A program made the position numbers and the translations under genes. The notes beneath the pieces were generated by a model. That model worked only from the letters and a program-made list of their open reading frames with translations, ran no database searches and had not been told where the DNA came from. A DNA stretch of 32,000 nt from an uncultured Thiomicrospira sp. (lineage in GTDB: Bacteria > Pseudomonadota > Gammaproteobacteria > CAKMZV01): positions 803,339 through 835,338 of the forward strand of contig OZ239628.1 of NCBI GenBank assembly GCA_965195345.1, written 5' to 3'. Below are positions 13,515-28,794 of this stretch, in pieces; the stretch's first letter is position 1, and every line of letters begins with the position of its first letter.

Positions 13515-15986
13515 ATGTTAAAGAATTCAGAGAAAAAAATATATCACGTAAGTTGGGGGTCTCTACTACTTTTTGTCTTTTTATCTGCCTGTGGTGGTGG
13601 CGGTGGCGGTGGCGGTGATACAGCACCTCCGATTATTGCGAGCACAACACCAAATTTAAGTGTATCGACCAATGCCATAACACTCAATGAAGATTTTGGC
13701 ACTTTTATCATCAACACCACTGCTACCGATGCAGAAGATGGAACGTTGTCAGTAACCGTATCTGGACAGGCAGGCTTGATAACCACTGATATCACCACTG
13801 ATAGAATTACCTTAAATTCTGTTGCCAATGCTAATGGCGTAACTACACTTACTGTACGTGCTACCGATAGCGGAAATCTCTCCGCTTCCACCGAAGTAGT
13901 TGTCACCATCAACGCCGTCAATGATGCTCCAACGTTAAGTTTATCAACTACAAACTTAATCTTATTACCCAATAGTACTGGTAGGATAACTGCCGTTTTT
14001 TCGGATGTGGAAACAAGTAGTAACGCATTGAATTTTGCGTTCCCAGTAAATACAGCTTTGGTGCAGGCGAGTAGGGAAGGCAATGATGTCATCGTGCTGA
14101 TATCGAGTGTTGTTGCAGGCTCAACTACTTTTGTTGTTACCGTCACTGATCAAGGTAACTTAAGCGCTTCAGCAACAGCTCGAGTTACTGTTCTCTCTAA
14201 TGCTTTGGATGTCGCGTTAAATGTTAAACGCATTGATTTTTCTTGGGGCAACTTCCCTGAAGCAAATCATTACCGCATGCTCAGTAATGTCGATTTAAAC
14301 GCTGGTGGTGGTTTTATTGATGCTAGTAGTGCAAACTTGGTATTTTTGCCAAATAGTACAAATATTATCAATACTACAGTCTCTGCAATAGTGGATGTAG
14401 CACGCTATCTTCCTGCGGTTAATGATCCGCAGTATCTGCTACAAGCTTGTACCAGTGTGGATGATTCCGTTTGTTCTAATCTTGCGGAAGGAACTCTGAC
14501 CAATGCTCAGTTAGAAGGATTGATTGGTTATTTCAAAGCTTCTAATACGGGAATGGGAGATATATTTGGTGATGCTGTAGCAATAAGTGGTGATGGTAAT
14601 ACGCTTGCAGTCGGTGCTGCTTTTGAGGACAGCGACGCCAGGGGCATCAACGGGGATCAATCAGACAATGATGCAGGTAACGCTGGTGCAGTGTATGTTT
14701 TTGTACGCAACAGTGCAGGAACATGGACACAACAAGCATACATTAAAGCCTCGAACTCACAAGGAAATGATCAATTCGCTGCCAGTGTAGACCTAAGCAA
14801 TGATGGTAATACCTTATTGGTTGGTGCACGTTTTGAAGGGAGTGGCGCTACTGGTATTAACGGTGATCAATCCAACAATAATCTTGACCAATCTGGTGCA
14901 GGCTATATTTTTGTACGCAACAGTGGAGGCACATGGAACCAGCAAGCTTACGTCAAAGCCTCTAATACGGGTCGGATTGATCAATTTGGTGCAGCTATAG
15001 CAATAAGCGGTGAAAGTGGTGCTACCGCATTTGTTGGTGCGCCAAATGAGGACAGTGGTGCGACTGGCATCAACGGTAATGAATCTGATAGTGTTGGTGC
15101 TGTAACTAACTCTGGTGCAGTCTATGCTTTTGTGCGTGATAGCATTGGTGCGTGGAGTCAACAAGCCTATATCAAAGCATCTAATACAGGAGCTGAAGAT
15201 GATTTTGGTGAAGTTTTATCAGCGAGTAGAAATGGCAATACCGTCATCGTTGGTGCGCCAAATGAGGACAGCGTTGCCACGGGCATCAACGGGGATCAAT
15301 TAGACAATTCTACAGCTAACTCTGGTGCAGCCTATGTTTTCGTGCGTAGTAGTACGGATACATGGAGTCAACAAGCCTATATCAAAGCCTCTAATACAGG
15401 ATTTACTGATCGGTTTGGTGGAGCTGTATCGATAAGTGGTGATGGTAATACCATAGTCGTTGGTTCATCTTTTGAAGACAGCAACTCTACCGGTGTTAAT
15501 GGGGTTCAAACGAATAATGGCGCAAGCAACTCTGGTGCAGCCTATGTTTTTGTGCGCAGTAGTACGGGCAGATGGAGTCAACAAGCCTACCTAAAAGCCT
15601 CCAATACAGATACAAATGATCAATTTGGTATAGCTTTAGCAATAAGCGGTGATGGTAACTCCATCATTGTTGGTGCAGTTGGGGAAGGAAGCGATGCCAC
15701 AGGTATTAACGGTGTTCAAAGCAATGATCTCTCAAATAGGGGACCTCGTGGTGCAGCCTATCTCTTTGTGCGTAGTGGTACGACATGGAGTCAACAAGCC
15801 TACATCAAATCCTCGAATACAGGTATTTTGGATGAGTTTGGTAACTCTGTTTCAATAAGTAATGATGGTAAAACGTTTGCTGTTGGTGCACCCACTGAAG
15901 ATAGCACTGCCACCGGCATTAATGGCGATCAATCAAATAATGGTACTGGTATTGGTTCAAATGCTGGTGCAGTGTATTTGTATTAG
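13515..15986 (+). CDS. Paralog 3: 823-aa predicted lipoprotein, the shortest stalk (2 Ig-like units), with an FN3-like neck and a 7-blade FG-GAP propeller
   Basis: ATG at 13515 follows GTGAGGA (13504-13510). The N-terminus MLKNSEKKIYHVSWGSLLLFVFLSAC carries lipobox LSAC (Cys codon 13590-13592), followed by Gly x8. Neck 14217-14528, blades 14529-15983. Ends GAVYLY, TAG. Confidence 0.95.
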   Translation: MLKNSEKKIYHVSWGSLLLFVFLSACGGGGGGGGDTAPPIIASTTPNLSVSTNAITLNEDFGTFIINTTATDAEDGTLSVTVSGQAGLITTDITTDRITLNSVANANGVTTLTVRATDSGNLSASTEVVVTINAVNDAPTLSLSTTNLILLPNSTGRITAVFSDVETSSNALNFAFPVNTALVQASREGNDVIVLISSVVAGSTTFVVTVTDQGNLSASATARVTVLSNALDVALNVKRIDFSWGNFPEANHYRMLSNVDLNAGGGFIDASSANLVFLPNSTNIINTTVSAIVDVARYLPAVNDPQYLLQACTSVDDSVCSNLAEGTLTNAQLEGLIGYFKASNTGMGDIFGDAVAISGDGNTLAVGAAFEDSDARGINGDQSDNDAGNAGAVYVFVRNSAGTWTQQAYIKASNSQGNDQFAASVDLSNDGNTLLVGARFEGSGATGINGDQSNNNLDQSGAGYIFVRNSGGTWNQQAYVKASNTGRIDQFGAAIAISGESGATAFVGAPNEDSGATGINGNESDSVGAVTNSGAVYAFVRDSIGAWSQQAYIKASNTGAEDDFGEVLSASRNGNTVIVGAPNEDSVATGINGDQLDNSTANSGAAYVFVRSSTDTWSQQAYIKASNTGFTDRFGGAVSISGDGNTIVVGSSFEDSNSTGVNGVQTNNGASNSGAAYVFVRSSTGRWSQQAYLKASNTDTNDQFGIALAISGDGNSIIVGAVGEGSDATGINGVQSNDLSNRGPRGAAYLFVRSGTTWSQQAYIKSSNTGILDEFGNSVSISNDGKTFAVGAPTEDSTATGINGDQSNNGTGIGSNAGAVYLY
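13593..13616 (+). repeat. (GGY)8 in-frame microsatellite encoding Gly8 directly after the lipobox Cys of paralog 3
   Basis: ggt ggt ggc ggt ggc ggt ggc ggt, then gat. Confidence 0.9.
14217..15983 (+). other. Paralog 3 C-terminal head: FN3-like neck (14217-14528) plus seven FG-GAP blades (14529-15983)
   Basis: KRIDFSWGNFPEANHYRML neck. Seven blade cores: FGDAVAISGDGNT, FAASVDLSNDGNT, FGAAIAISGESGAT, FGEVLSASRNGNT, FGGAVSISGDGNT, FGIALAISGDGNS, FGNSVSISNDGKT. Confidence 0.75.
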
Positions 15987-16235: not shown

Positions 16236-19202
16236 ATGAAAATGAAACATTTAAAGTGCTGGGGGTTTCTATTGTCACTTGTTTTTCTATCTGCCTGCGG
16301 TGGCGGCGGCGGTGGCGGTGGCGGTGATACAGCACCTCCGATTATTGCGAGCACAACACCAAATTTAAGTGTATCGACCAATGCCGTAACACTCAATGAA
16401 GATTTTGGCACTTTTATCATCAACACCACTGCTACCGATGTAGAAGATGGAACGTTGTCAGTAACCGTATCTGGACAGGCTGGTTTGCTAACCACTGATA
16501 TTACCACTGGTCGAATTACCCTAACTTCTGTTGCCAATGCTAACGGCGTAACTACACTTACTGTACGTGCTACCGATAGCGGAAATCTCTCTGCTACCAC
16601 CGAAGTGGTTGTCACCATCAATGATGCTCCAACATTGACACTATCAACAACGAACCTCAGCCTCAGTGAAGATTTTGGCACTTTTGTCATCAACACCACA
16701 GCAAGTGATGCAGAAGATGGCGTGCTTCCCGTTGCAGTGACTGGACAAGATGCCAGTCTATTCGCCGTAACCACTTCTACCGATCAGATAATACTTACCT
16801 CCGTTGCTAATGCTAACGGCATAGCTACGCTTACAGTAAGCATTGTTGATAGTGGAAATCTCTCCGCTACCACCGAAGTGGTTGTTGTTGTCAATGCCAG
16901 TCCTACATTGACACTATCAACAACGAACCTCAGCCTCAATGAAGATTTTGGCACTTTTATCATCAACACCACTGCTACCGATGTAGAAGATGGAACGTTG
17001 TCAGTAACCGTATCTGGACAGGCTGGTTTGCTAACCACTGATATTACCACTGGTCGAATTACCCTAACTTCTGTTGCCAATGCTAACGGCGTAACCACAC
17101 TTACTGTACGTGCTACCGATAGCGGAAATCTCTCTGCTACCACCGAAGTGGTTGTCACCATCAATGATGCTCCAACGTTAAGTTTATCAACTACAAACTT
17201 AATCTTATTACCCAATAGTACTGGTAGGATAACTGCCGTTTTTGCGGATGTGGAAACAAGTAGTAACTTATTGACTTTTGTGATACAAGAAAATACAGCT
17301 TTGGTGCGGGTGAGTAGGCAAGGCAATGATGTCATCGTGCTGAGATCGAACACTGCGGCAGGCTCAACTACTTTAGTTGTTACCGTCACTGATGAAGGTG
17401 GGGCAAGCGCCTCAGAAACAGTTCGAGTTACTGTTCTCTCTAATGTTTTGAATGTCGCGTTAAATGTTAAACGCATTGATTTTTCTTGGGGCAACTTCCC
17501 TGAAGCAAATCATTACCGCATGCTCAGTAATGTCGATTTAACCGCTGGTGGTGGCTTTGTTGATGCTAGTAGTGCAAACTTGGTATTTTTGCCAAATAGT
17601 ACAAATATTATCAATACTACAGTCTCTGCAATAGTGGATGTAGCACGCTATCTTTCTGCGGTTAATGGACCAGAGTATCTGCTGCAAGCTTGTACCAGTG
17701 TGGACAACTCAGTTTGTTCTAATCTTGCGCAACAAACTCTGACCAATGCTCAGTTAGAAGGATTGATTGGTTACTTCAAAGCTTCTAATACAGGTGCTGA
17801 TGATAGGTTTGGTAGGGCTGTAGCAATAAGTGGTGATGGTAATACGCTTGCAGTCGGTGCTGCTTTTGAGGACAGCGACGCCAGGGGTATTAACGGCGGA
17901 ACAAATGATGCCCTCGCCGACTCTGGTGCAGTGTATGTTTTTGTACGCAACAGTGCAGGAACATGGGCACAACAAGCATACATTAAAGCCTCGAACTCAG
18001 GAGGAGATGATCAATTCGGTGCCAGTGTAGACCTAAGTAATGATGGTAATACCTTATTGGTTGGTGCACGTTTTGAGGACAGCGATGCGACTGGCATTAA
18101 CGGTGATGAAACAAACAATGATTCAAGAGCCTCTGGTGCAGCCTATATTTTTGTACGCAACAGTGGAGGCACATGGAGCCAACAAGCTTACGCCAAAGCC
18201 TCTAATACAGGATCTGATGATGACTTTGGTGAGGCTGTAGCAATAAGTGGTGATGGTAATACGCTAATTGTTGGTGCATCTGGTGAGGACAGCACCGCCA
18301 CGGGCATCAACGGGGATCAATTAGACAATTCTACAGCTAACTCTGGTGCAGCCTATGTTTTTGTGCGTAGTAGTACTGGTACATGGAGTCAACAAGTCTA
18401 CCTTAAAGCATCTAATGCAGAAGCCGGTGATAATTTTGGTAGAGCTTTATCGGCGAGCAGTAATGGCAATACCGTCATCGTTGCTGCGCCAAGTGAGGAC
18501 AGCGCTGCCACTGGCATCAATGGGAATCAATTAAATAATTCTACAGCTAACTCTGGTGCGGTCTATGTTTTCGTGCGTAGTAGTACTGGTACATGGAGTC
18601 AACAAGCCTATGTTAAAGCCTCTAATACAGGAACTAATGATGATTTTGGTTTTGCCTTGTCACTGAGCGATGATGGTAATACCATGGTCGTTGGTGCGCC
18701 TGCTGAAGACAGCAATTCTACCGGTGTTAATGGGGTTCAAACGAATAATGGCGTAAGTAACTCTGGTGCAGTCTATGTTTTTGTACGTAGTAGTACGGGC
18801 AGCTGGCGTCAACAAGCATATCTAAAAGCCTCCAATACAGATAATGACGATCTATTTGGTCATGCTGTAGCAATAAGCGGTGATGGTAATTCCATCATTG
18901 TTGGTGCAGTAGCTGAAGAAAGCGATGCCACAGGTATTAACGGCGATCAAACAAGCAATGCTACACGTTTTTCTGGTGCAGCCTATCTTTTTGTGCGTAG
19001 TGGTACGACATGGAGTCAACAAGCCTACATCAAAACAACGAACCCAGGCTTTTTTGATGAGTTTGGTGACGCTGTTTCAATAAGTAATGATGGTAAAACG
19101 TTTGCTGTTGGCGCACGCAATGAAGAAAGCAGTGCCACTGGTATCAATGGTGATCAAACAAACAATAGTCAAGATAACGCTGGTGCAGTGTATTTGTATT
19201 AA
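16236..19202 (+). CDS. Paralog 4: 988-aa predicted lipoprotein with 4 Ig-like units (A-B-A plus terminal), an FN3-like neck and a 7-blade FG-GAP propeller
   Basis: ATG at 16236; a second in-frame ATG at 16242 is an equally possible start. MKMKHLKCWGFLLSLVFLSAC carries lipobox LSAC (Cys codon 16296-16298), followed by Gly x9. Neck 17460-17771, blades 17772-19199. Ends GAVYLY, TAA. The head is most similar to that of paralog 3. Confidence 0.95.
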   Translation: MKMKHLKCWGFLLSLVFLSACGGGGGGGGGDTAPPIIASTTPNLSVSTNAVTLNEDFGTFIINTTATDVEDGTLSVTVSGQAGLLTTDITTGRITLTSVANANGVTTLTVRATDSGNLSATTEVVVTINDAPTLTLSTTNLSLSEDFGTFVINTTASDAEDGVLPVAVTGQDASLFAVTTSTDQIILTSVANANGIATLTVSIVDSGNLSATTEVVVVVNASPTLTLSTTNLSLNEDFGTFIINTTATDVEDGTLSVTVSGQAGLLTTDITTGRITLTSVANANGVTTLTVRATDSGNLSATTEVVVTINDAPTLSLSTTNLILLPNSTGRITAVFADVETSSNLLTFVIQENTALVRVSRQGNDVIVLRSNTAAGSTTLVVTVTDEGGASASETVRVTVLSNVLNVALNVKRIDFSWGNFPEANHYRMLSNVDLTAGGGFVDASSANLVFLPNSTNIINTTVSAIVDVARYLSAVNGPEYLLQACTSVDNSVCSNLAQQTLTNAQLEGLIGYFKASNTGADDRFGRAVAISGDGNTLAVGAAFEDSDARGINGGTNDALADSGAVYVFVRNSAGTWAQQAYIKASNSGGDDQFGASVDLSNDGNTLLVGARFEDSDATGINGDETNNDSRASGAAYIFVRNSGGTWSQQAYAKASNTGSDDDFGEAVAISGDGNTLIVGASGEDSTATGINGDQLDNSTANSGAAYVFVRSSTGTWSQQVYLKASNAEAGDNFGRALSASSNGNTVIVAAPSEDSAATGINGNQLNNSTANSGAVYVFVRSSTGTWSQQAYVKASNTGTNDDFGFALSLSDDGNTMVVGAPAEDSNSTGVNGVQTNNGVSNSGAVYVFVRSSTGSWRQQAYLKASNTDNDDLFGHAVAISGDGNSIIVGAVAEESDATGINGDQTSNATRFSGAAYLFVRSGTTWSQQAYIKTTNPGFFDEFGDAVSISNDGKTFAVGARNEESSATGINGDQTNNSQDNAGAVYLY
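16299..16325 (+). repeat. (GGY)9 in-frame microsatellite encoding Gly9 directly after the lipobox Cys of paralog 4
   Basis: ggt ggc ggc ggc ggt ggc ggt ggc ggt, then gat. Confidence 0.9.
16359..17171 (+). repeat. A-B-A unit block in paralog 4: A1 16359-16628, gene-2-type B unit 16629-16901, A2 16902-17171
   Basis: A1 (about 16395-16628) and A2 (about 16938-17171) lie 543 nt apart. By eye they differ at one base (ggcgtaacT vs ggcgtaacC) over about 237 nt. The unit between them reads like the paralog 2 B consensus (DGVLPVAVTGQDASLFAVTTSTDQIILTSVANANGIATLTVSIVDSGNLSATTEVVVVVN). Confidence 0.9.
17460..19199 (+). other. Paralog 4 C-terminal head: FN3-like neck (17460-17771) plus seven FG-GAP blades (17772-19199)
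   Basis: Same motifs. Seven cores: FGRAVAISGDGNT, FGASVDLSNDGNT, FGEAVAISGDGNT, FGRALSASSNGNT, FGFALSLSDDGNT, FGHAVAISGDGNS, FGDAVSISNDGKT. Confidence 0.75.
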
Positions 19203-19449
19203 ATACGTATATAGCTAAAAGGCAATTAGAGTTGCTTGATTAACCCACCATTATGTATTCATCAGGAGAACAGGCGCACAACTTTTTTACTTAATGTTTC
19301 GCTGTAAATGTTATGAACTGTTTGCATGTTTTCTCATGCTTTAATTTATAATGATTAGGATTGCTGGATTGTAGACATACTGCTTTTATCAAACACATAA
19401 ACTGTTGTGATAATTGTGATTTCATAGTTAAAATAAAATATAGGACTAA
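19203..19449 (+). promoter_or_regulatory. Full-length conserved intergenic cassette upstream of paralog 5, with two candidate sigma70-like promoters
   Basis: Distal candidate: TTGCAT 19322-19327, 19 nt, TATAAT 19347-19352. Proximal candidate: TTGTGA 19405-19410, 18 nt, TAAAAT 19429-19434; this would leave only about a 10-nt leader. Direct repeat TTGTGAT at 19405-19411 and 19414-19420. AGGA at 19442-19445. Confidence 0.4.
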
Positions 19450-22400
19450 ATGAAAATGAACCATTTAAAGTGCTGGGGATTTCTATTATCACTCGTTTTT
19501 TTATCTGCCTGTGGCGGTGGGGGTGGCGGCGATTCAACACCTCCGTCTACTAATACAGCACCAAGTTTAAGTCTCTCTGTCAATGCCCTAATGCTTGATG
19601 AAGATTTTGGCACTTTTGTCATCAATACCACTGCAACCGATGCAGAAGATGGGACACTGTCCGTAACTGTATCTGGACAGGCTGGTTTGCTAACCACTGA
19701 TGTCACCACTGGTCGAATTACCCTAACTTCTATTGCCAATGCTAACGGCACAACTACACTTACTGTACGTGCTACCGATAGCGGAAACCTCTCTGCTACC
19801 ACCGAAGTAGTTGTCACCATTAACGCCATCAATGATGCCCCGACATTTACTCTTGCTACAACAAACATTACTATCGTTGAAAATGCCACTGCTCGTCAAA
19901 CGATTTCCATTCCCAATGTAGTCGATGTTGACGGAAACGCACTGACCTTTTCAGTCATTGCCTCCACTTCTTTATTTAGTACTAACCCAACACCTGTTGT
20001 GTCTTTTTCAGATACAAGGGTGATAATCTCCGATACACAACCTACAGCTCAACTCTATTACAGCCTACTGCCCGACGTCACAGGCTCTGGCTTCATTCAA
20101 ATTGCTTTAACAGATGGCATAGAGACCCAACGTACGACCGTTACTGTTACTGTTACAGAAGTTAGAACTCCACCCCAAATTACCCAAGACTTTAGAACAC
20201 ATCGCTTCTTTGATGCGCGTGCAACGCGTGTAGGCGCTGTTGGAGGTGTCTTATTTGCAGCACGAGGTGCATTTACTGGATCGACTGAAACAACCTCAAC
20301 AGATGGTACGGGGAATTTTAGTAATCAATTAAACTTTGTCCGTTCCTTAGGAGGGAGTTTAGCCGAACTTTACACTGAGGAAACATACAACGCTTTATTG
20401 GGTTCTGTTTTGGTTTCCAATGGCACTGCAACAGCAGACTTTAATGATGATCGTTTTTGGCTTGGACTCACTGATACACCCAATGCTTTTGGCGCTTCTG
20501 TGTCAGATCAATCTTCCTCATTAGAGCGTTATTTTTGGTTGTCTGGTCAGCGGGTGTCACAAGGATTAGGTATTTCTCGTATAGAAGTTCCAGGAGTGTA
20601 CATAGGCTGGGGGTCATCCGCCCCAACTGCAAGCAATGAGCCCTGTGCTAATTTGATTCTTGGTGCCGAAGTATCTGCAGGGCTCAGACCTTGGGCAAGT
20701 ACTGGGTGCGATGGATCATCATCTGCTACTTTCAATGTGCTAAAAGCGTTGATGCAGTTCCCAAATGGCTTACCTACTACTTCTTCAATGATTGTTCAAG
20801 CGAGGCTCCCAATCACCCGTATTCGTTTAAGTGGTTATGATCTTGATGGTTCAGATAATACATTGTCTTGGCAAGTTACCGATGCATCTGGTGGTGGTAT
20901 CACTACTTCCACAGTCTATAGCAGTACTGGCGCACAAACCTTAGAGATTTCTTACACTCCTGTGAGCGGCTTTTCAGGCACTGCGACCCTTGTTGTAAGC
21001 TTAGATGATGGTGATAGTGCTACGCAAAATAGTACTGCCCGTGTATTGGTGGTTAATAACACACCAACTTTAATATTTTCCACCAATACTGTCAGCTTAG
21101 ATGAAGACTTTACCAGATTCGTCATTAACACCACTGCAACCGATGCAGCAGGGATAATCGACTTTAGTGTTAGCACAGGAAACGGTATTGTTTTTGTAAC
21201 CACCTCTGCTAATGCGATTACACTGCAATCACTTTCGAATATAAATGGTGCTGTAACCTTAACAGTCGTTGCGGATAGTGGTCTTTTGACAAATACACAG
21301 ACGATTAGCGTTGTGGTTAATCCAGTTAATGACACTCCCACGCTGTCTTTATCTGTGACGCAAAGGGTGCTTGCTCAAAACTTTGGCACTTTCGTCATCA
21401 ACACCACTGCAACCGATGTGGATTCAGGCCCATTGGGCTTTAGTGTCAGTACAGGTAATGGCATTGTTAATGTAACAACCTCTGTCAATACGATTACTCT
21501 GCAATCACTCGCTAATGTCATAGGCGATGTTACGTTAACGGTTAGCGTAAGCGATGGACTATTGACGACGACACAGTCCATTTTTATAACCGTTAGTAGA
21601 CCGTTTACGTTTGAAGTATCGACAAACACTATCGTTTTAGATGAAGATTTTAATACCTTCATTATTAACACCACTGCAACGGCTGCAGATGGGACTATAT
21701 TACCTATTTCAGTGGTGCAGAGCAGCTCTAACCTACTTACATTCAGCACTATAACTGGGCGCATTACCCTTTCATCTATTGCGAATGCTAATGGAGTAAC
21801 AACCCTTACCGTGAGTGCAGCTAATCAAAATGGACTAACGAACACGACAGAAGTAGCCATTACCGTTAATTCCGTTAATGATACTCCCACACTCAGTTTA
21901 TCAAGTACAGACTTAACTTTCTCACCTAATGGAACCGGTTTTATAACTGCTTTTGGTGCGGATGTGGAAACAAGCAGTGCCTCATTGATCTATTCTGTAC
22001 AACAAAACCCATCTTTGTTACAGGTGAGTACACCAGGCAATGTCATCGTACTGAGAGCGGGTGATACTACAGGCTCGACCACTTTAGTGATCACCGTTAC
22101 TGATGGCGGTGGTTCAAGCGCTTCAGCAACCGCTCGAGTTACTGTTTTATCAGGTGTTTTGAATGCTTTGAATGTAAGTTTAAATGTTAAACGCATTAAC
22201 TTTTCTTGGAACACACTTCCTACAGCAAATCATTACCGCATGCTTAGCAATGTTGATTTGAATGCTGGTGGTGGTTTTGTTGATGCCAGTAGCGCAGGCT
22301 TGGTGTTTGTACCGAATAGTACGAATATTATCAATACTACAGTCTCTGCAACAGTGGATGTAGCAGGCTATCTTTCTACGGCTGATGGACCACAGTACCT

Positions 22401-23922
22401 GCTACAAGCTTGTAGTAGTGTTGACAATTCCGCTTGTTCTAATCTTGCACAACAATCTCTGAGCAATATTCAGTTAGAGGGATTGATTGGTTATTTCAAA
22501 GCTTCTAATACAGATGCAGATGATGAATTTGGTGAGGGTGTCGCAATAAGCGGTGATGGCAACACATTAGTTGTCGGTGCACCATTTGAGGACAGCACCG
22601 CCACTGTCATCAACGGCGATGAATCAGACAATTCTAGAAGTGACTCTGGTGCAGCCTATGTTTTCGTGCGTAGTAGTACGGGCAGCTGGCGTCAACAAGC
22701 CTATATCAAAGCCTTTGATGCACAAGCCAATGGTCAGTCTAATTCAGCTGTACCAAGGAGCAATGATCAGTTTGGTGCAGCTGTAACAATAAGCAATGAC
22801 GGTAATACTATAGTTGTTGGTGCAGAATTTAAGGATGTTGCCGCTCCTGGCGGTTCCGTTCAGCCCAACACTGGTGCAGCCTATGTTTTCGTGCGCAGTA
22901 GTACCGGCAGCTGGCGTCAACAAGCTTTCATCAGCGCTTCTAATCTAAATGCCAATGATCGGTTTGGAAGAACTGTATCGGTCGCTGCTGATGGTAATAC
23001 ACTCGCTGTCGGTGCACCTTTAAAAAGCGTAAATGCTCTAACTTCTGTTGGTACAGCCTATGTTTTTGTACGCAGTAGTACAGATTCATCATGGAGTGAG
23101 CAAGCTTTATTTACACCACCTACTGTAATAATTAGTAGTAATTTTGGTTCTGCTGTATCGATGAGTGGTGATGGTAATACCATGGTCGTTGGTGCAAGTG
23201 GTGACCGAAGTAATGGCATGGGTATCAACGCTGATGAAGTCCCTACTAGTACTCCTCTTTTTAATTCTGGTGCAGCCCATGTTTTTGTACGCAGTAGTAC
23301 AGATAGTACATGGAGTCGGCAAGCTTATATTAGAGCCTCAAATCCAGGTAGTACTGATCTCTTTGGTGCAGCTGTATCGATGAGTGGTGATGGTAATACC
23401 ATGGTCGTTGGTGCACATCAAGAAGACAGCAATGCCACGGGAATCGGCGGGGGGCAAGGAGATGTTAGTAATCCTAATTCAAATTTTGGTGCAGCCTATG
23501 TTTTTGTGCGCAGTAGTACGGGCACATGGAGCCAACAAGAATATATCAAAGCCTCAAATACAGGATTTGGTGATGTGTTTGGTTTTGCTGTTTCAATGCG
23601 CAGTGATGGTAATGCGTTCGTTGTTGGTGCACCATTTGAGGACAGCAATGCCACGGGAATCAACGGGGTCCAAGGAGGTGGTGCTACTGACGCTGGTGCA
23701 GTCTATCTTTTTGTACGCAGTGGTACGACATGGCGTCAACAAGCCTACATCAAAGCCTCAAACACAGGAGCTGATGATGAGTTTGGTGACTCTGTTTCAA
23801 TAAGCAGTGATGGTAAAACGCTTGCTGTCGGTGCACCCAATGAAGATAGCAATGCCACTGGTATCAATGGTAATCAAACAGACGATAGTCAAGATGACGC
23901 TGGTGCAGTGTATTTGTATTAG
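19450..23922 (+). CDS. Paralog 5: 1490-aa predicted lipoprotein with 7 Ig-like units, a C-type-lectin-like insert, an FN3-like neck and a 7-blade FG-GAP propeller
   Basis: ATG at 19450 (alternative at 19456), with AGGA at 19442-19445. MKMNHLKCWGFLLSLVFLSAC carries lipobox LSAC (Cys codon 19510-19512), followed by Gly x6. CTLD-like 20191-20760, neck 22180-22491, blades 22492-23919. Ends GAVYLY, TAG. Confidence 0.95.
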   Translation: MKMNHLKCWGFLLSLVFLSACGGGGGGDSTPPSTNTAPSLSLSVNALMLDEDFGTFVINTTATDAEDGTLSVTVSGQAGLLTTDVTTGRITLTSIANANGTTTLTVRATDSGNLSATTEVVVTINAINDAPTFTLATTNITIVENATARQTISIPNVVDVDGNALTFSVIASTSLFSTNPTPVVSFSDTRVIISDTQPTAQLYYSLLPDVTGSGFIQIALTDGIETQRTTVTVTVTEVRTPPQITQDFRTHRFFDARATRVGAVGGVLFAARGAFTGSTETTSTDGTGNFSNQLNFVRSLGGSLAELYTEETYNALLGSVLVSNGTATADFNDDRFWLGLTDTPNAFGASVSDQSSSLERYFWLSGQRVSQGLGISRIEVPGVYIGWGSSAPTASNEPCANLILGAEVSAGLRPWASTGCDGSSSATFNVLKALMQFPNGLPTTSSMIVQARLPITRIRLSGYDLDGSDNTLSWQVTDASGGGITTSTVYSSTGAQTLEISYTPVSGFSGTATLVVSLDDGDSATQNSTARVLVVNNTPTLIFSTNTVSLDEDFTRFVINTTATDAAGIIDFSVSTGNGIVFVTTSANAITLQSLSNINGAVTLTVVADSGLLTNTQTISVVVNPVNDTPTLSLSVTQRVLAQNFGTFVINTTATDVDSGPLGFSVSTGNGIVNVTTSVNTITLQSLANVIGDVTLTVSVSDGLLTTTQSIFITVSRPFTFEVSTNTIVLDEDFNTFIINTTATAADGTILPISVVQSSSNLLTFSTITGRITLSSIANANGVTTLTVSAANQNGLTNTTEVAITVNSVNDTPTLSLSSTDLTFSPNGTGFITAFGADVETSSASLIYSVQQNPSLLQVSTPGNVIVLRAGDTTGSTTLVITVTDGGGSSASATARVTVLSGVLNALNVSLNVKRINFSWNTLPTANHYRMLSNVDLNAGGGFVDASSAGLVFVPNSTNIINTTVSATVDVAGYLSTADGPQYLLQACSSVDNSACSNLAQQSLSNIQLEGLIGYFKASNTDADDEFGEGVAISGDGNTLVVGAPFEDSTATVINGDESDNSRSDSGAAYVFVRSSTGSWRQQAYIKAFDAQANGQSNSAVPRSNDQFGAAVTISNDGNTIVVGAEFKDVAAPGGSVQPNTGAAYVFVRSSTGSWRQQAFISASNLNANDRFGRTVSVAADGNTLAVGAPLKSVNALTSVGTAYVFVRSSTDSSWSEQALFTPPTVIISSNFGSAVSMSGDGNTMVVGASGDRSNGMGINADEVPTSTPLFNSGAAHVFVRSSTDSTWSRQAYIRASNPGSTDLFGAAVSMSGDGNTMVVGAHQEDSNATGIGGGQGDVSNPNSNFGAAYVFVRSSTGTWSQQEYIKASNTGFGDVFGFAVSMRSDGNAFVVGAPFEDSNATGINGVQGGGATDAGAVYLFVRSGTTWRQQAYIKASNTGADDEFGDSVSISSDGKTLAVGAPNEDSNATGINGNQTDDSQDDAGAVYLY
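19513..19530 (+). repeat. (GGN)6 tract encoding Gly6 after the lipobox Cys of paralog 5 (identical tract at 24234-24251 in paralog 6)
   Basis: ggc ggt ggg ggt ggc ggc, then gat. Confidence 0.9.
20191..20760 (+). other. C-type-lectin-like domain (CTLD) inserted in the paralog 5 stalk
   Basis: FRTHRFFDARATRVG...LGGSLAELYTEETYNALLG...DDRFWLGLTD...ERYFWLSGQRVS...YIGWGSSAPTASNEPCANLILG...RPWASTGCDG...LKALMQF. Same motif order as in paralog 1. Confidence 0.55.
22180..23919 (+). other. Paralog 5 C-terminal head: FN3-like neck (22180-22491) plus seven FG-GAP blades (22492-23919)
   Basis: Same motifs, seven cores. Blades 1-4 closely resemble those of paralog 2, for example FKDV.APGG replacing the canonical EDSxATGING loop in blade 2. 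Confidence 0.75.
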
Positions 23923-24170
23923 AAGACGTATATAGCTAAAAGGCAATTAGAGTTGCTTGATTACCCCACCATTATGTGTTCATCAGGAGAACAGGCACAC
24001 AGCTTTTTTACTTAATGTTTCGCTGTAAATGTTATGAACTGTTTGCATGTTTTCTCATGCTTTAATTTATAATGATTAGGATTGCTGGATTGTAGACATA
24101 CTGCTTTTATCAAACACATAAACTGTTGTGATAATTGTGATTTCATAGTTAAAATAAAATATAGGACTAA
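23923..24170 (+). promoter_or_regulatory. Full-length conserved intergenic cassette upstream of paralog 6
   Basis: Near-identical copy of 19203-19449. TATAAT 24068-24073, TTGTGA 24126-24131, TAAAAT 24150-24155. Confidence 0.4.
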
Positions 24171-27100
24171 ATGAAAATGAACCATTTAAAGTGCTGGGGA
24201 TTTCTATTATCACTCGTTTTTTTATCTGCCTGTGGCGGTGGGGGTGGCGGCGATTCAACACCTCCGTCTACTAATACAGCACCAAGTTTAAGTCTCTCTG
24301 TCAATGCCCTAATGCTTGATGAAGATTTTGGCACTTTTGTCATCAATACCACTGCAACCGATGCAGAAGATGGGACACTGTCCGTAACTGTATCTGGACA
24401 GGCTGGTTTGCTAACCACTGATGTCACCACTGGTCGAATTACCCTAACTTCCATTGCCAATGCTAACGGCACAGCTACACTTACTGTACGTGCTACCGAT
24501 AGCGGAAACCTCTCTGCTACCACCGAAGTGGTTGTCACCATTAACGCCATCAATGATGCCCCGACATTTACTCTTGCTACAACAAACATTACTATCGTTG
24601 AAAATGCCACTGCTCGTCAAACGATTTCCATTCCCAATGTAGTCGATGTTGACGGAAACGCACTGACCTTTTCAGTCATTGCCTCCACTTCTTTATTTAG
24701 TACTAACCCAACACCTGTTGTGTCTTTTTCAGATACAAGGGTGATAATCTCCGATACACAACCTACAGCTCAACTCTATTACAGCCTACTGCCCGACGTC
24801 ACAGGCTCTGGCTTCATTCAAATTGCTTTAACAGATGGCATAGAGACCCAACGTACGACCGTTACTGTTACTGTTACAGAAGTTAGAACTCCACCCCAAA
24901 TTACCCAAGACTTTAGAACACATCGCTTCTTTGATGCGCGTGCAACGCGTGTAGGCGCTGTTGGAGGTGTCTTATTTGCAGCACGAGGTGCATTTACTGG
25001 ATCGACTGAAACAACCTCAACAGATGGTACGGGGAATTTTAGTAATCAATTAAACTTTGTCCGTTCCTTAGGAGGGAGTTTAGCCGAACTTTACACTGAG
25101 GAAACATACAACGCTTTATTGGGTTCTGTTTTGGTTTCCAATGGCACTGCAACAGCAGACTTTAATGATGATCGTTTTTGGCTTGGACTCACTGATACAC
25201 CCAATGCTTTTGGCGCTTCTGTGTCAGATCAATCTGCCTCAGTAGAGCGTTATTTTTGGTTGTCTGGTCAGCGGGTGTCACAAGGATTAGGTATTTCTCG
25301 TATAGAAGTTCCAGGAGTGTACATAGGCTGGGGGGCATCCGCCCCAACTGCAAGCAATCAGCCCTGTGCTAATTTGATTCTTGGTGCCGAAGTATCTGCA
25401 GGTCTCAGACCTTGGGCAAGTACTGGGTGCGATGGATCATCATCTGCTACTTTCAATGTGCTAAAAGCGTTGATGCAGTTCCCAAATGGCTTACCTACTA
25501 CTTCTTCAATGATTGTTCAAGCGAGGCTCCCAATCACACGTATTCGTTTAAGTGGTTATGATCTTGATGGTTCAGATAATACATTGTCTTGGCAAGTTAC
25601 CGATGCATCTGGTGGTGGTATCACTACTTCCACAGTCTATAGCAGTACTGGCGCACAAACCTTAGAGATTTCTTACACTCCTGTGAGCGGCTTTTCAGGA
25701 ACTGCGACCCTTGTTGTAAGCTTAGATGATGGTGATAGTGCTACGCAAAATAGTACTGCCCGTGTATTGGTGGTTAATAACACACCAACTTTAACACTCT
25801 CAACCAATGTTGTCAGCTTAGATGAAGACTTTACCAGCTTCGTCATTAACACCACTGCAACCGATGCAGCAGGGATAATCGACTTTAGTGTTAGCACAGG
25901 AAACGGTATTGTTTTTGTAACCACCTCTGCTAATGCGATTACACTGCAATCACTTTCGAATATAAATGGTGCTGTAACCTTAACAGTCGTTGCGGATAGT
26001 GGTCTTTTGACAAATACACAGACGATTAGCGTTGTGGTTAATCCAGTTAACGACACTCCCACGCTGTCTTTATCTGTGACGCAAAGGGTGCTTGCTCAAA
26101 ACTTTGGCACTTTCGTCATCAACACCACTGCAACCGATGTGGATTCAGGCCCATTGGGCTTTAGTGTCAGTACAGGTAATGGCATTGTTAATGTAACAAC
26201 CTCTGTCAATACGATTACTCTGCAATCACTCGCTAATGTCATAGGCGATGTGACGTTAACGGTTAGCGTAAGCGATGGACTATTGACGACGACACAGTCC
26301 ATTTTTATAACCGTTAGTAGACCGTTTACGTTTGAAGTATCGACAAACACTATCGTTTTAGATGAAGATTTTAATACCTTCATTATTAACACCACTGCAA
26401 CGGCTGCAGATGGGACTATATTACCTATTTCAGTGGTGCAGAGCAGTTCTAACCTACTTACATTCAGCACTATAACTGGGCGCATTACCCTTTCATCTAT
26501 TGCGAATGCTAATGGAGTAACAACTCTTACCGTGAGTGCGGCTAATCAAAATGGACTAACGAACACGACAGAAGTAGCGATTACCGTTAATTCCGTTAAT
26601 GACACTCCCACACTCAGCTTATCAACTACAAACTTAACTTTCTCACCTAATGGAACCGGTTTTATAACTGCTTTTGGTGCGGATGTGGAAACAAGCAGTG
26701 CCTCATTGATCTATTCTGTACAACAAAATCCATCTTTGTTGCAGGTGAGTACACCAGGCAATGTCATTGTACTGAGAGCGGATGATACTACAGGTTCGAC
26801 AACTTTAGTGATAACCGTTACTGATGGCGGTGGTTCAAGCGCTTCAGCAACTGCTCGAGTTACTGTTCTATCAGGTGTTTTGAATGCTTTGAGCGTAAGT
26901 TTAAATGTTAAACGCATTAACTTTTCTTGGAACACACTTCCTACAGCAAACCATTACCGTATGCTTAGCAATGTCGATTTGAACGCTGGTGGTGGTTTTG
27001 TTGATGCCAGTAGCGCAGGTTTGGTGTTTATACCGAATAGCACGAATATTATCAATACTACAGTCTCTGCAACAGTGGATGTGGCACGCTATCTTTCTAC

Positions 27101-28634
27101 GGCTGATGGACCACAGTATCTGCTGCAAGCTTGTAGTAGTGTGGACAATTTCGCTTGTTCTAATCTTGCACAACAATCTCTGAGCAATATTCAGTTAGAG
27201 GGATTGATTGGTTACTTCAAAGCTTCTAATACGGAAATGGGAGATGAATTTGGTGAGGGTGTCGCAATAAGTGGTGATGGCAACACATTAGTTGTCGGTG
27301 CACCCGGAGAAGATAGCGACGCCACCGGCATCAACGGCGATGAATCAGACAATTCTAGAAGTAACTCTGGTGCAGCCTATGTTTTCGTGCGCAGTAGTAC
27401 AGGCAGCTGGCGTCAACAAGCATACCTTAAAGCCTCTGATGCAGCAGATGATGATGGGTTTTCTTCAAGAGCTGTAACAATAAGCAATGACGGTAATACT
27501 ATAGTTGTTGGTGCACCACGCAAGGATGTTGCCGCTCCTGGCGGTAGCCCCCAGGGCAACACTGGTGCAGCCTATGTTTTCGTGCGCAGTAGTACCGGCA
27601 GCTGGCGTCAACAGGCTTTCATCAGCGCTTCTAATCTAAATGCCAATGATCAGTTTGGAACAGCTGTATCGGTTGCTGCTGATGGTAATACACTCGCTAT
27701 CGGTGCGCCTTCAAAAACTGTACGTACTATAGATTCTATGGGTCAATCTGTGAGCAGAGCTACTGCTGGTACAGCCTATGTTTTTGTACGCAGTAGTACA
27801 GATTCATCATGGAGTGAGCAAGCTATATTGACAGCACCTTTTGTAACGAGTTTTGCTTTTTTTGGTAATGCTGTATCGATGAGTGGTGATGGTAATACCA
27901 TGGTCGTCGGTGCAGACGGTGACCAAAGTACTGGCACGGGTATCGGCAGTGATGAATCCACCATTAATGATTTTGGTACCGGTGCTGCCCATGTTTTTGT
28001 ACGTAGTAGTACGGGTAGATGGAGTCGGCAAGAATATTTTAAAGCCTCAAATGCAGAAGGTACTGATCTCTTTGGTACAGCTGTATCGATGAGCGGTGAT
28101 GGTAATACCATGGTCGTTGGTGCACCAGGGGAAGACAGCAATGCCACGGGTGTCGACGGGGATCAAGCAAATAATGGTAGTGGTGTTAATTCAAATTCTG
28201 GTGCAGCCTATGTTTTTGTGCGCAGTAGTACGGGCACATGGACGCAAGAAGCCTATATCAAAGCCTCAAATACAGGAGATGGTGATGTGTTTGGTTCTGT
28301 TCTCTCAATGAGCAATGATGGTAATGCGTTCGTTGTTGGTGCACCAAATGAGGACAGCAATGCCACGGGAATCAACGGGGGGGAAGCAGGTGGTGCTAAT
28401 AACGCTGGTGCAGTCTATCTTTTTGTGCGCAGTGGTACGACATGGCGTCAACAAGCCTATACCAAAGCCTCAAACACAGGAGCTGATGATGCGTTTGGTG
28501 ACTCTGTTTCAATAAGCAGTGATGGTAAAACGTTTGCTGTTGGCGCATCTGGCGAAAATGGCAGCGCCACTGGTATCAATGGCGATCAAACAGACGATAG
28601 TCAAGATAACGCTGGTGCAGTGTATTTGTATTAG
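24171..28634 (+). CDS. Paralog 6: 1487-aa predicted lipoprotein, a tandem duplicate of paralog 5 with a diverged propeller
   Basis: Offset exactly 4721 bp from paralog 5. Identical signal peptide and lipobox (Cys codon 24231-24233). I count 16 aa differences from paralog 5 over the first 1014 aa. CTLD-like 24912-25481, neck 26901-27212, blades 27213-28631. Ends GAVYLY, TAG. Confidence 0.95.
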   Translation: MKMNHLKCWGFLLSLVFLSACGGGGGGDSTPPSTNTAPSLSLSVNALMLDEDFGTFVINTTATDAEDGTLSVTVSGQAGLLTTDVTTGRITLTSIANANGTATLTVRATDSGNLSATTEVVVTINAINDAPTFTLATTNITIVENATARQTISIPNVVDVDGNALTFSVIASTSLFSTNPTPVVSFSDTRVIISDTQPTAQLYYSLLPDVTGSGFIQIALTDGIETQRTTVTVTVTEVRTPPQITQDFRTHRFFDARATRVGAVGGVLFAARGAFTGSTETTSTDGTGNFSNQLNFVRSLGGSLAELYTEETYNALLGSVLVSNGTATADFNDDRFWLGLTDTPNAFGASVSDQSASVERYFWLSGQRVSQGLGISRIEVPGVYIGWGASAPTASNQPCANLILGAEVSAGLRPWASTGCDGSSSATFNVLKALMQFPNGLPTTSSMIVQARLPITRIRLSGYDLDGSDNTLSWQVTDASGGGITTSTVYSSTGAQTLEISYTPVSGFSGTATLVVSLDDGDSATQNSTARVLVVNNTPTLTLSTNVVSLDEDFTSFVINTTATDAAGIIDFSVSTGNGIVFVTTSANAITLQSLSNINGAVTLTVVADSGLLTNTQTISVVVNPVNDTPTLSLSVTQRVLAQNFGTFVINTTATDVDSGPLGFSVSTGNGIVNVTTSVNTITLQSLANVIGDVTLTVSVSDGLLTTTQSIFITVSRPFTFEVSTNTIVLDEDFNTFIINTTATAADGTILPISVVQSSSNLLTFSTITGRITLSSIANANGVTTLTVSAANQNGLTNTTEVAITVNSVNDTPTLSLSTTNLTFSPNGTGFITAFGADVETSSASLIYSVQQNPSLLQVSTPGNVIVLRADDTTGSTTLVITVTDGGGSSASATARVTVLSGVLNALSVSLNVKRINFSWNTLPTANHYRMLSNVDLNAGGGFVDASSAGLVFIPNSTNIINTTVSATVDVARYLSTADGPQYLLQACSSVDNFACSNLAQQSLSNIQLEGLIGYFKASNTEMGDEFGEGVAISGDGNTLVVGAPGEDSDATGINGDESDNSRSNSGAAYVFVRSSTGSWRQQAYLKASDAADDDGFSSRAVTISNDGNTIVVGAPRKDVAAPGGSPQGNTGAAYVFVRSSTGSWRQQAFISASNLNANDQFGTAVSVAADGNTLAIGAPSKTVRTIDSMGQSVSRATAGTAYVFVRSSTDSSWSEQAILTAPFVTSFAFFGNAVSMSGDGNTMVVGADGDQSTGTGIGSDESTINDFGTGAAHVFVRSSTGRWSRQEYFKASNAEGTDLFGTAVSMSGDGNTMVVGAPGEDSNATGVDGDQANNGSGVNSNSGAAYVFVRSSTGTWTQEAYIKASNTGDGDVFGSVLSMSNDGNAFVVGAPNEDSNATGINGGEAGGANNAGAVYLFVRSGTTWRQQAYTKASNTGADDAFGDSVSISSDGKTFAVGASGENGSATGINGDQTDDSQDNAGAVYLY
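24912..25481 (+). other. C-type-lectin-like domain (CTLD) inserted in the paralog 6 stalk
   Basis: Copy of the paralog 5 domain with 4 aa differences: SSSL to SASV (two changes), GSSAP to GASAP, SNEPC to SNQPC. Confidence 0.55.
26901..28631 (+). other. Paralog 6 C-terminal head: FN3-like neck (26901-27212) plus seven FG-GAP blades (27213-28631)
   Basis: Same motifs, seven cores. The FG of blade 2 is degenerate (SSRAVTISNDGNT). Blades 5-7 resemble those of paralog 2. Confidence 0.75.
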
Positions 28635-28794
28635 AATACGTATATAGCTAAAAGGCAATTAGAGTTGCTTGATTACTCCACCATTATGTATTCATCAGAA
28701 GAACAGGCGCACAACTTTTTTACTTAACGTTTATTGCTGTAAATGTTATAAACTGTTGTGGTAATTATGATTTCATAGTGAGAATATAAGGTTA
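28635..28794 (+). promoter_or_regulatory. Shortened intergenic cassette upstream of paralog 7 (internal deletion of about 84 nt)
   Basis: The sequence jumps from ...gctgtaaatgttataAACTGTT straight to gtggtaattatgatttcatag. The full cassette has two AACTGTT direct repeats (19316-19322 and 19400-19406) flanking exactly the missing segment. The deletion removes the distal TATAAT element and keeps the proximal TTGTG(A/G) element. Confidence 0.45.

Follow-up and report, generated by a model that had tools for sequence, protein, structure and literature searches.

The question raised by this locus is what fold, and what role, should be assigned to a segment of about 190 aa lying in the stalk of three paralogous surface proteins, which are encoded within a 32-kb stretch (32,000 nt, positions 803,339–835,338; hereafter the window) of contig OZ239628.1 from an uncultured Thiomicrospira sp. 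The initial annotation had read this segment (hereafter the insert) as a C-type-lectin-like domain (CTLD) spliced into a cadherin-like stalk. Judged from its sequence, the insert is most likely a highly divergent member of the long-form CTLD superfamily that forms a lineage-restricted family of its own. A CTLD fold combined with a Ca2+-independent ligand-binding role is given a probability of about 0.6, the fold by itself being predicted with somewhat greater confidence.

The window comprises seven tandem paralogous genes on the same strand (p1–p7; open reading frame calls and self-comparison; Table 1). When the p5 copy of the insert was searched against it by blastp and tblastn, exactly three copies were recovered, in p1, p5 and p6 and precisely where they had been annotated, all other matches having E-values of 0.4 or worse; comparison of the paralogs within the window found no counterpart in p2, p3, p4 or p7. 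A fourth copy, ~79% identical, occurs in P0001 (1864 aa), encoded elsewhere on the same 1,920,693-bp contig. Between p1 and p5 the insert has a synonymous divergence (dS) of 0.33 and a nonsynonymous divergence (dN) of 0.16 (dN/dS 0.49), and it is a real, selected coding domain. Comparison by hhalign with the Ig-like repeats, neck and propeller gives a probability of only 0.1–0.3%, in agreement with the earlier view that the insert is not Ig-like. The motifs from which a lectin fold had been suspected are all present (GGSLAELYTEETYNALL, FWLGL(TD), YFWLSGQRV, YIGWG..AP, (E/Q)PC or QGC, and RPWAS..C), every copy contains only two cysteines, aligned with C2 and C3 of CTLDs, and the canonical Ca2+- and sugar-binding residues are missing; on all these points the initial annotation was borne out.

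No Pfam family other than Lectin_C (PF00059) was reported for any construct of the insert; the match spans insert residues 51–174 and profile positions 13–98 of 107. All scores lie under the gathering threshold of 22.6 bits, with 14.2 bits (E 0.076) for a 273-aa p5 construct, 15.6 bits (E 0.029) for a 195-aa construct, 16.7 bits (E 0.013) for the 149-aa p5 core and 12.9 bits (E 0.2) for the P0001 copy. The scan against Lectin_C that had been proposed as a check thus singles out the expected family, but below its threshold and with the p1 copy unmatched. In the PDB, a C-type lectin specific for N-acetylglucosamine (6a7s_B) is the top match for the four-sequence profile (E 0.12) and for the p1 (E 0.23) and P0001 (E 0.037) copies, the match lying on the insert's C-terminal half with YFW...IGWG..P..GC in register. 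The P0001 copy also matches carbohydrate-recognition domain 4 (CRD4) of the mannose receptor (7jub_A and 1egg_A; E 0.07–0.08) through its N-terminal half, colinear with the 6a7s_B match, where phmmer aligns FARSLGGSLAELYTEETYNALL...FWLGLT with FCRALGGDLASINNKEEQQTIW...FWLGLT. These lectin matches are at the noise boundary, and their worth is in their recurrence and colinearity.

In profile–profile comparison by hhalign, the four copies align with 11 canonical CTLDs at a probability of 63% (P 6.9e-5, score 32.8) and with 19 canonical CTLDs at 79.8% (P 1.4e-5, score 35.9, 92 columns), where P is a pairwise value for a hypothesis drawn from reading the same sequence and not a database-wide E-value. 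The signal grows as the CTLD profile becomes more diverse. When columns were shuffled in two sets of 400, the mean scores were 11.7–11.9 (standard deviation 2.4), with maxima of 25.4 for the 11-CTLD and 21.9 for the 19-CTLD profile, which places the real scores 8.6–10 standard deviations above the shuffles; the reversed sequence scored 10.4 and six other domains from the same protein 8–15. MAFFT alignment with diverse CTLDs independently yields the same register, in which the columns of W (of NW), C2 and C3 are invariant and those of the L in LA, the G in WIGL, the P in EPN and the W in WND nearly so.

At the level of the fold, the CTLD superfamily has a double-loop alpha/beta topology in which two helices flank two sheets. 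Published CTLDs are characterised by side-by-side termini, a WIGL motif in strand beta2, a C2–C3 bridge and a Ca2+-binding site 2 formed by E/QPD/N plus WND (PMC6468738). Aligned on this plan, the insert domain, which has an N-terminal extension of ~45 aa, would retain the landmarks of the fold, namely the GG.LA strand, the S.EE..L helix, the WIGL-type beta2 (FWLGL, invariant in all four copies), the W.W strand, the W...P loop, the C2–C3 pair and the core Trp. Its sole two cysteines fall in the C2 and C3 columns of every alignment, and are predicted to form this bridge. The C1–C4 disulfide would be lost, as V or A occupies position 50 and N/F-region residues occupy 181–182, with no Cys; this bridge is missing from some other CTLD-fold proteins too. 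At Ca2+ site 2 the aligned residues are A/S-P-T/G, E/Q and W-A-S, and four of the five ligands would be gone because EPN is replaced by APT, APG or SPG and WND by WAS, with only the position of the cis-Pro and the Trp retained, and the Glu as well in p5. The long loop, which has 58 residues against 36 in E-selectin, would have grown from about 35.

Several observations weigh against this assignment, and part of them favour instead an orphan domain with another, possibly new, alpha/beta fold, whose CTLD-like motifs would be due to chance or convergence. No match in a database-wide search reaches curated or conventional significance, every E-value being 0.01–0.2 and under the curated cut-off: formal membership of PF00059 failed (14.2–16.7 bits for p5 and p6, 12.9 for P0001), and nothing was reported for the p1 copy against Pfam. 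For the p5 copy alone no lectin was listed in the PDB sequence search, and unrelated entries matched at like E-values (0.07–0.5), among them 9vyg_A (an adaptor; 0.073), MYC3 (0.15), 9ze4_N (0.16–0.3) and the carbohydrate-binding module of SEX4 (0.36). The canonical CTLDs used in the hhalign profiles were typed in and checked indirectly only: a hybrid-alignment search returned 580 matches, of which all 120 listed were PF00059 and included 'Chain A, human E-selectin', and the added CTLD sequences score strongly against the first CTLD profile. A small HMMER profile built from the typed CTLDs gave 4–6 bits on the insert, barely over shuffles. The register depends on the CTLD set, as MAFFT with only ASGPR and selectins moves the N-terminal half so that LAELYTEE falls on alpha1. 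AlphaFold2 reached a confidence (pLDDT) of only 36 on the three-paralog alignment and 31 on a hybrid alignment including 16 genuine CTLDs, the latter being of low diversity, shifted in its N-terminal half by MAFFT, and a biased test of compatibility in any case. The C1–C4 disulfide is lacking, and the absence of homologues among 1.84 billion proteins leaves no intermediates that would link the insert to CTLDs. The ligand-binding role, for its part, is putative.

The orphan fold is nonetheless considered unlikely. The CTLD alone recurs across Pfam, the PDB and hhalign, two non-overlapping halves of the insert match different lectins in colinear order, the hhalign P-value falls to its lowest with the more diverse profile at 10 standard deviations over the shuffles, and the single-residue landmarks G, W, W, P, C, W and C all occur in the right order with plausible spacing. 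The searches indicate no fold other than the CTLD, which is predicted in the register originally proposed. The shifted N-terminal register would delete helix alpha2 and is unsupported by Pfam, phmmer and hhalign. Both low-confidence AlphaFold2 models have a helix on EETYNALLG, and a Foldseek search of the PDB with the pLDDT-36 model gave noise (best E 0.77). The central-fibre domain of phage tail tip protein J (9ze4_N) is a recurrent weak PDB match over p5 insert residues 58–111 (20362–20523), sharing ...AGFNVDRFWIGRPGTP... with ...ADFNDDRFWLGLTDTP..., and is the only non-lectin match common to two different copies; this resemblance is probably due to chance.

Relatives of the insert are confined to this genome in the databases searched. 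The insert, alone and as a four-sequence profile, found nothing among 5.8 billion clusters even at E ≤ 10, and an exhaustive HMMER search of 1.84 billion representative proteins returned only P0001 and three low-complexity repeat artefacts. In GTDB species genomes and JGI metagenomes, patterns of insert peptides and a degenerate DNA pattern for YFWLSGQRV matched nothing beyond 9-mers attributable to chance. NCBIfam and PHROGs scans gave nothing useful, and a hybrid profile search for sequences that might bridge the gap brought up, among the matches listed, mammalian ASGPR, CLEC10A and selectins only. Six-frame searches of 69 loci encoding the neck and propeller of the host protein, with up to 10 kb of upstream sequence, found no match to either the insert profile or a CTLD profile.

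The expression "spliced into" does not fit the arrangement found, where the insert is the centre of a multi-domain cassette (p5 aa 129–823) common to p1, p5, p6 and P0001 only, and was not spliced in by itself. Before it comes a divergent Ig-like domain with 25–33% identity to other stalk repeats, which ends in TVTEVRT without an xNDxP linker and is joined to the insert by a linker rich in Pro, and after it comes a Big_9-type Ig-like domain with 96–100% identity among the four proteins. The cassette is, from its sequence, arranged in line, as beads on a string. Nesting of the insert in a loop of an Ig-like domain was rejected, since the preceding domain has a normal last strand (TVTVTVTEV) and the next domain starts afresh. 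The preceding domain ends in TVTEVRTPPQITQD (junction 20140–20190) and, as this lacks a cadherin linker motif, the chain probably enters the insert through a hinge of another kind, rich in Pro.

Polycystin-1 and the mannose receptor are examples of proteins with mid-chain CTLDs, and with adjacent termini such a placement is not strange, so that calling the mid-stalk position unusual was an overstatement. In-line insertion is easy because the N- and C-termini of a CTLD lie side by side (PMC6468738), and for the same reason the path of the stalk would be almost unchanged and the module would stick out from it laterally like a knob, the face with the long loop turned outward. The module would then sit in line between two specialised Ig-like domains of a lipid-anchored stalk with a propeller at its tip, and these two cassette-specific neighbours may pack against it, as D2 and D3 of intimin do (PMC7718877). 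With the Ca2+/sugar site gone and the long loop enlarged, the nearest functional analogues would be CTLDs that do not bind sugar (snaclecs, natural killer cell receptors, intimin and invasin) but instead bind proteins or use the loop to associate, and a Ca2+-independent lateral binding knob is therefore proposed. Such a non-classical knob could give p1, p5, p6 and P0001 an extra specificity beside that of the propeller tip, which may be tuned by the loops that differ between copies.

The distribution of variable residues bears on this proposal. In the four-copy alignment 135 of 195 columns are invariant, and the 60 variable ones cluster at positions 31–45, 76–85, 95–112, 126–132, 142–151, 159–165 and 171–183; 53 of them fall where the hhalign registers match no core element of CTLDs, 43 lie between residues 95 and 183, which reach the predicted beta4–beta5 loop and form the ligand-binding face in other CTLDs, and the long-loop region alone (20470–20643) holds 27. 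A CTLD with an architectural role instead, as a kink, spacer or self-association module that fixes the stalk's geometry or its oligomeric state, would agree with the loss of the Ca2+ and sugar ligands, with the near invariance of both flanking domains and of the insert's first 26 residues, as expected of an inter-domain packing unit, and with the much enlarged long loop, since an expanded long loop mediates dimerisation in snaclecs (PMC6468738), the snake-venom CTLDs that dimerise by swapping long loops. This role appears quite improbable: variation is greatest in the loops that point away from the termini, and fits the tuning of specificity better than a fixed structural role, and four paralogs in the window lack the module altogether.

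Variable loops on a CTLD could also recall the targets of diversity-generating retroelements (DGRs), such as Mtd or TvpA, as DGR variable regions are typically placed on CTLD folds (PMC10743442), and the copies of the insert differ mainly in loops; on that reading adenine-directed mutagenic retrohoming would have produced the differences. A DGR origin is extremely improbable and was effectively refuted for the window. The only DNA copies there are the three in-frame genic ones, with no template repeat; only paralog genes were found, with no reverse transcriptase open reading frame; the module lies in the middle of the protein and not at the C-terminus; and the 96 substitutions between the p1 and p5 inserts are ordinary, being mostly transitions that affect all four bases about equally, with no adenine bias.

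The evolution of the copies is uneven along the genes. Only 2 of these 96 substitutions fall in the first 90 nt of the insert (20191–20280; 1520–1609 in p1), where silent sites are conserved too and none of the first 26 residues (FRTHRFFDARATRVGAVGGVLFAARG) varies among the four copies; recent conversion or a nucleotide-level constraint could account for this. The p5 and p6 proteins are 95–100% identical over their first ~1030 aa (dS 0–0.19; stalks at 19450–22203 and 24171–26924), while their propellers (22540–23919 and 27261–28631) are 79% identical with a dN/dS of 0.93 (dS 0.15, dN 0.14), so that protein-level divergence is far faster in the tip domain than in the stalk. The dS between p1 and p5 is a mosaic, with 0.06–0.17 in p5 aa 438–823 and 0.33–0.65 in the insert, first repeat and propeller, which suggests block-wise gene conversion between tandem paralogs. 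A wider picture, which seems rather unlikely taken as a whole, is that the insert founds a domain family of a single lineage, being either a CTLD too divergent for HMMER and AlphaFold2 or a new fold, and that the array serves to vary what the surface recognises, two binding heads being diversified, of which the lectin-like knob is one, with cassettes exchanged by gene conversion and propeller tips evolving at a dN/dS near 1.

Table 1. Features of the paralog array and of the insert. Positions are those of the window; insert residue + 247 = p5 residue number; structural elements are assigned under the predicted CTLD fold.
Feature	Position	Strand	Insert residues	Remarks
p1	44-5233	+		1729 aa or more; 5' end beyond the window edge; p5-like architecture plus extra N-terminal repeats
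p2	5484-13250	+		without insert
p3	13515-15986	+		without insert
p4	16236-19202	+		without insert
p5	19450-23922	+		1490 aa
p6	24171-28634	+		1487 aa; architecture as p5
p7	28795 to window end, continuing beyond	+		without insert
Insert, p1 copy	1520-2077	+		73.8% identity to p5 copy (blastp), 76% over aligned codons
Insert, p5 copy	20191-20760	+		aa 248-437; reference query (100%)
Insert, p6 copy	24912-25481	+		97.9% identical to p5 copy; 5 nt differences
p5 lipobox, LSAC	19501-19512	+		lipoprotein signal MKMNHLKCWGFLLSLVFLSAC
p5 Ig-like domain before insert	19834-20169	+		aa 129-240; divergent; only in insert-bearing paralogs
p5 Ig-like domain after insert	20791-21072	+		aa 448-541; distinct, Big_9-type; only in insert-bearing paralogs
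p5 neck	22204-22539	+		precedes propeller
p5 propeller	22540-23919	+		seven FG-GAP repeats; FG-GAP_2 matches
beta0/beta1 region			1-30	first 26 residues invariant
alpha1			43-53	C1 replaced by V or A at 50
GGSLAEL strand			54-60	
alpha2			62-74	TEETYNALLGSVL
GGSLAELYTEETYNALL	20350-20400	+		alpha1 end, 'LA.I' strand and alpha2 (S.EE..FL motif); invariant in 4/4 copies; hhalign, phmmer (FCRALGGDLASINNKEEQQTIW), MAFFT
FWLGL	20455-20469	+	89-93	WIGL of beta2; W and G columns invariant in MAFFT; hhalign and phmmer agree
Long-loop region	20470-20643	+	94-151	between beta2 and C2; insertions around 95-112 and 126-136
YFWLSGQRV	20530-20556	+	114-119 (YFWLSG)	W.W.DG strand
YIGWGSSAP	20599-20625	+	137-145	NW..GEPN equivalent
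E or Q			150	E in p5; Glu position two residues before C2
C2	20644-20646	+	152	p5 C399; column invariant in MAFFT and hhalign
RPWASTGC	20686-20709	+	166-170 (RPWAS)	beta4 'WND..C' equivalent; W kept, ND replaced by AS
C3	last codon of 20686-20709	+	173	p5 C420; aligned final Cys
beta5			about 180-190	without C4

The host protein contains, in p5, a lipoprotein signal, cadherin-like tandem-95/Big_9 repeats, the insert cassette, further repeats, a neck and an FG-GAP propeller. The paralogs begin with a lipoprotein signal peptide and LSAC lipobox followed by a Gly run, and continue with a stalk of ~94-aa Ig-like repeats whose number varies by paralog, a conserved neck of ~110 aa with one Cys pair, and seven C-terminal FG-GAP_2 repeats (E 1e-48 to 1e-57; 8e-57 in the host-family test). 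The NCBIfam tandem-95 repeat (NF012211) scores 112 bits against a cut-off of 90 and Pfam Big_9 scores 31.7 bits on the stalk against a cut-off of 23.6, both passing, and Cadherin_4 and Cadherin_5 match weakly. The host can thus be classified from its sequence as a tandem-95 repeat/FG-GAP_2 surface lipoprotein with an integrin-alpha-like propeller. As the ordinary stalk repeats close with cadherin-type Ca2+-binding linkers of the form xNDxP (NAINDAP, NPVNDTP and NSVNDTP, e.g. p5 aa 124–131, 618–626 and 808–816), the earlier label of a cadherin-like stalk is a fair one.

Other features of the array may be recorded here. The p2 protein is a giant of 2588 aa with ~20 near-identical 94-aa repeats. 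Several minus-strand open reading frames of 65–236 aa in the array (e.g. 16784–17494 and 28773–29246) look like antisense repeat artefacts and not genes. Each paralog has an intergenic block of ~250 bp with the same hairpin plus T-run and the same sigma-70-like hexamers (19324–19339 and 24045–24060; 19386–19434 and 24107–24155). As the hairpin and hexamer counts are not above regional shuffle expectation, these blocks only suggest separate transcription of each gene.

Relatives of the host neck and propeller occur in 69 genomes, with 28–56% identity in the best-matching segment (mostly about 35–48%), mostly in uncultured marine Gammaproteobacteria and also in Myxococcota, Acidobacteriota and others. 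Their stalks are built of Cadherin, Big_9, Big_7 or tandem-95 repeats, and none has a lectin-like module. The stalk is interchangeable among these loci, with 10 true Cadherin domains (PF00028) in a metagenome-assembled genome of Chromatiaceae, Big_9 in an open reading frame of more than 3860 aa and Big_7 at another locus; example loci are L007 (5280–10178), L052 (2–11581) and L003 (8477–11653). One or two neck/propeller loci are found on each of two chromosomes, ~2.1 Mb in size, from uncultured Gammaproteobacteria. Among proteins with an Ig-like stalk, a neck and a propeller of seven FG-GAP_2 repeats the host is hence an ordinary member, whereas the insert is absent from the 69 loci.

If the predicted fold is correct, the insert would be a long-form bacterial CTLD with a single disulfide, without the Ca2+ site and with a nearly doubled long loop, set sideways in a cadherin-like, lipid-anchored and propeller-tipped stalk, and would enlarge by one the group of characterised prokaryotic CTLDs, which is still small. 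In practical terms it also illustrates a domain close to the limit of detection, for which billions of proteins yielded no homologue and AlphaFold no confident model, and for which profile–profile statistics and landmark residues still yield a testable fold call.

Among known systems, the canonical long-form CTLDs of PF00059 (mannose-receptor CRD4, 1egg/7jub; bivalve SPL, 6a7s; selectins; MBP-A) share with the insert the order of landmarks and the long loop between beta2 and beta3. They differ in a long loop of about 30–36 aa and in having the C1–C4 disulfide and Ca2+ site 2, the latter two being absent from the insert. Large stalk proteins of other kinds likewise carry an in-line globular binding module, examples being polycystin-1 and the macrophage mannose receptor, whose CTLDs lie between Ig-like repeats, and the RTX mega-adhesins of bacteria, but these are eukaryotic or type-1-secreted. 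In the RTX mega-adhesins ligand-binding modules are set into a BIg stalk, the inserts being PA14, vWA or peptide-binding domains, none of which is known to be a CTLD.

Non-sugar animal CTLDs use the scaffold without E/QPD/N, with a rudimentary W-x-x in beta4 and a long loop expanded for protein contacts (PMC6468738). They offer the best functional analogy for the insert, which may by this comparison serve in Ca2+-independent, non-glycan binding or association, but they keep both conserved disulfides and are free domains or stand at the tip of a membrane stalk. Some animal CTLDs form loop-swapped dimers, and nothing here points to such dimers in the insert. Domain D3 of intimin and D5 of invasin, as described in PMC6468738 and PMC7718877, are likewise lectin-like domains of Big-domain stalk adhesins, bind protein without Ca2+ or sugar, and pack on a specialised preceding Ig-like domain; the insert, too, follows a specialised Ig-like domain. 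Theirs is a compact CTLD at the C-terminal tip of a protein with an N-terminal beta-barrel anchor, whereas the insert would be of long form and mid-stalk, in a protein with a lipid anchor and a propeller tip, and Pfam scans of the host protein and the insert gave no match to Intimin_C or invasin, which does not agree with an inverse autotransporter. The design suggested here is thus a non-classical likeness to CTLDs, distinct, if the fold is true, from the compact tip domains of intimin and invasin, in a mid-chain position that is not unprecedented.

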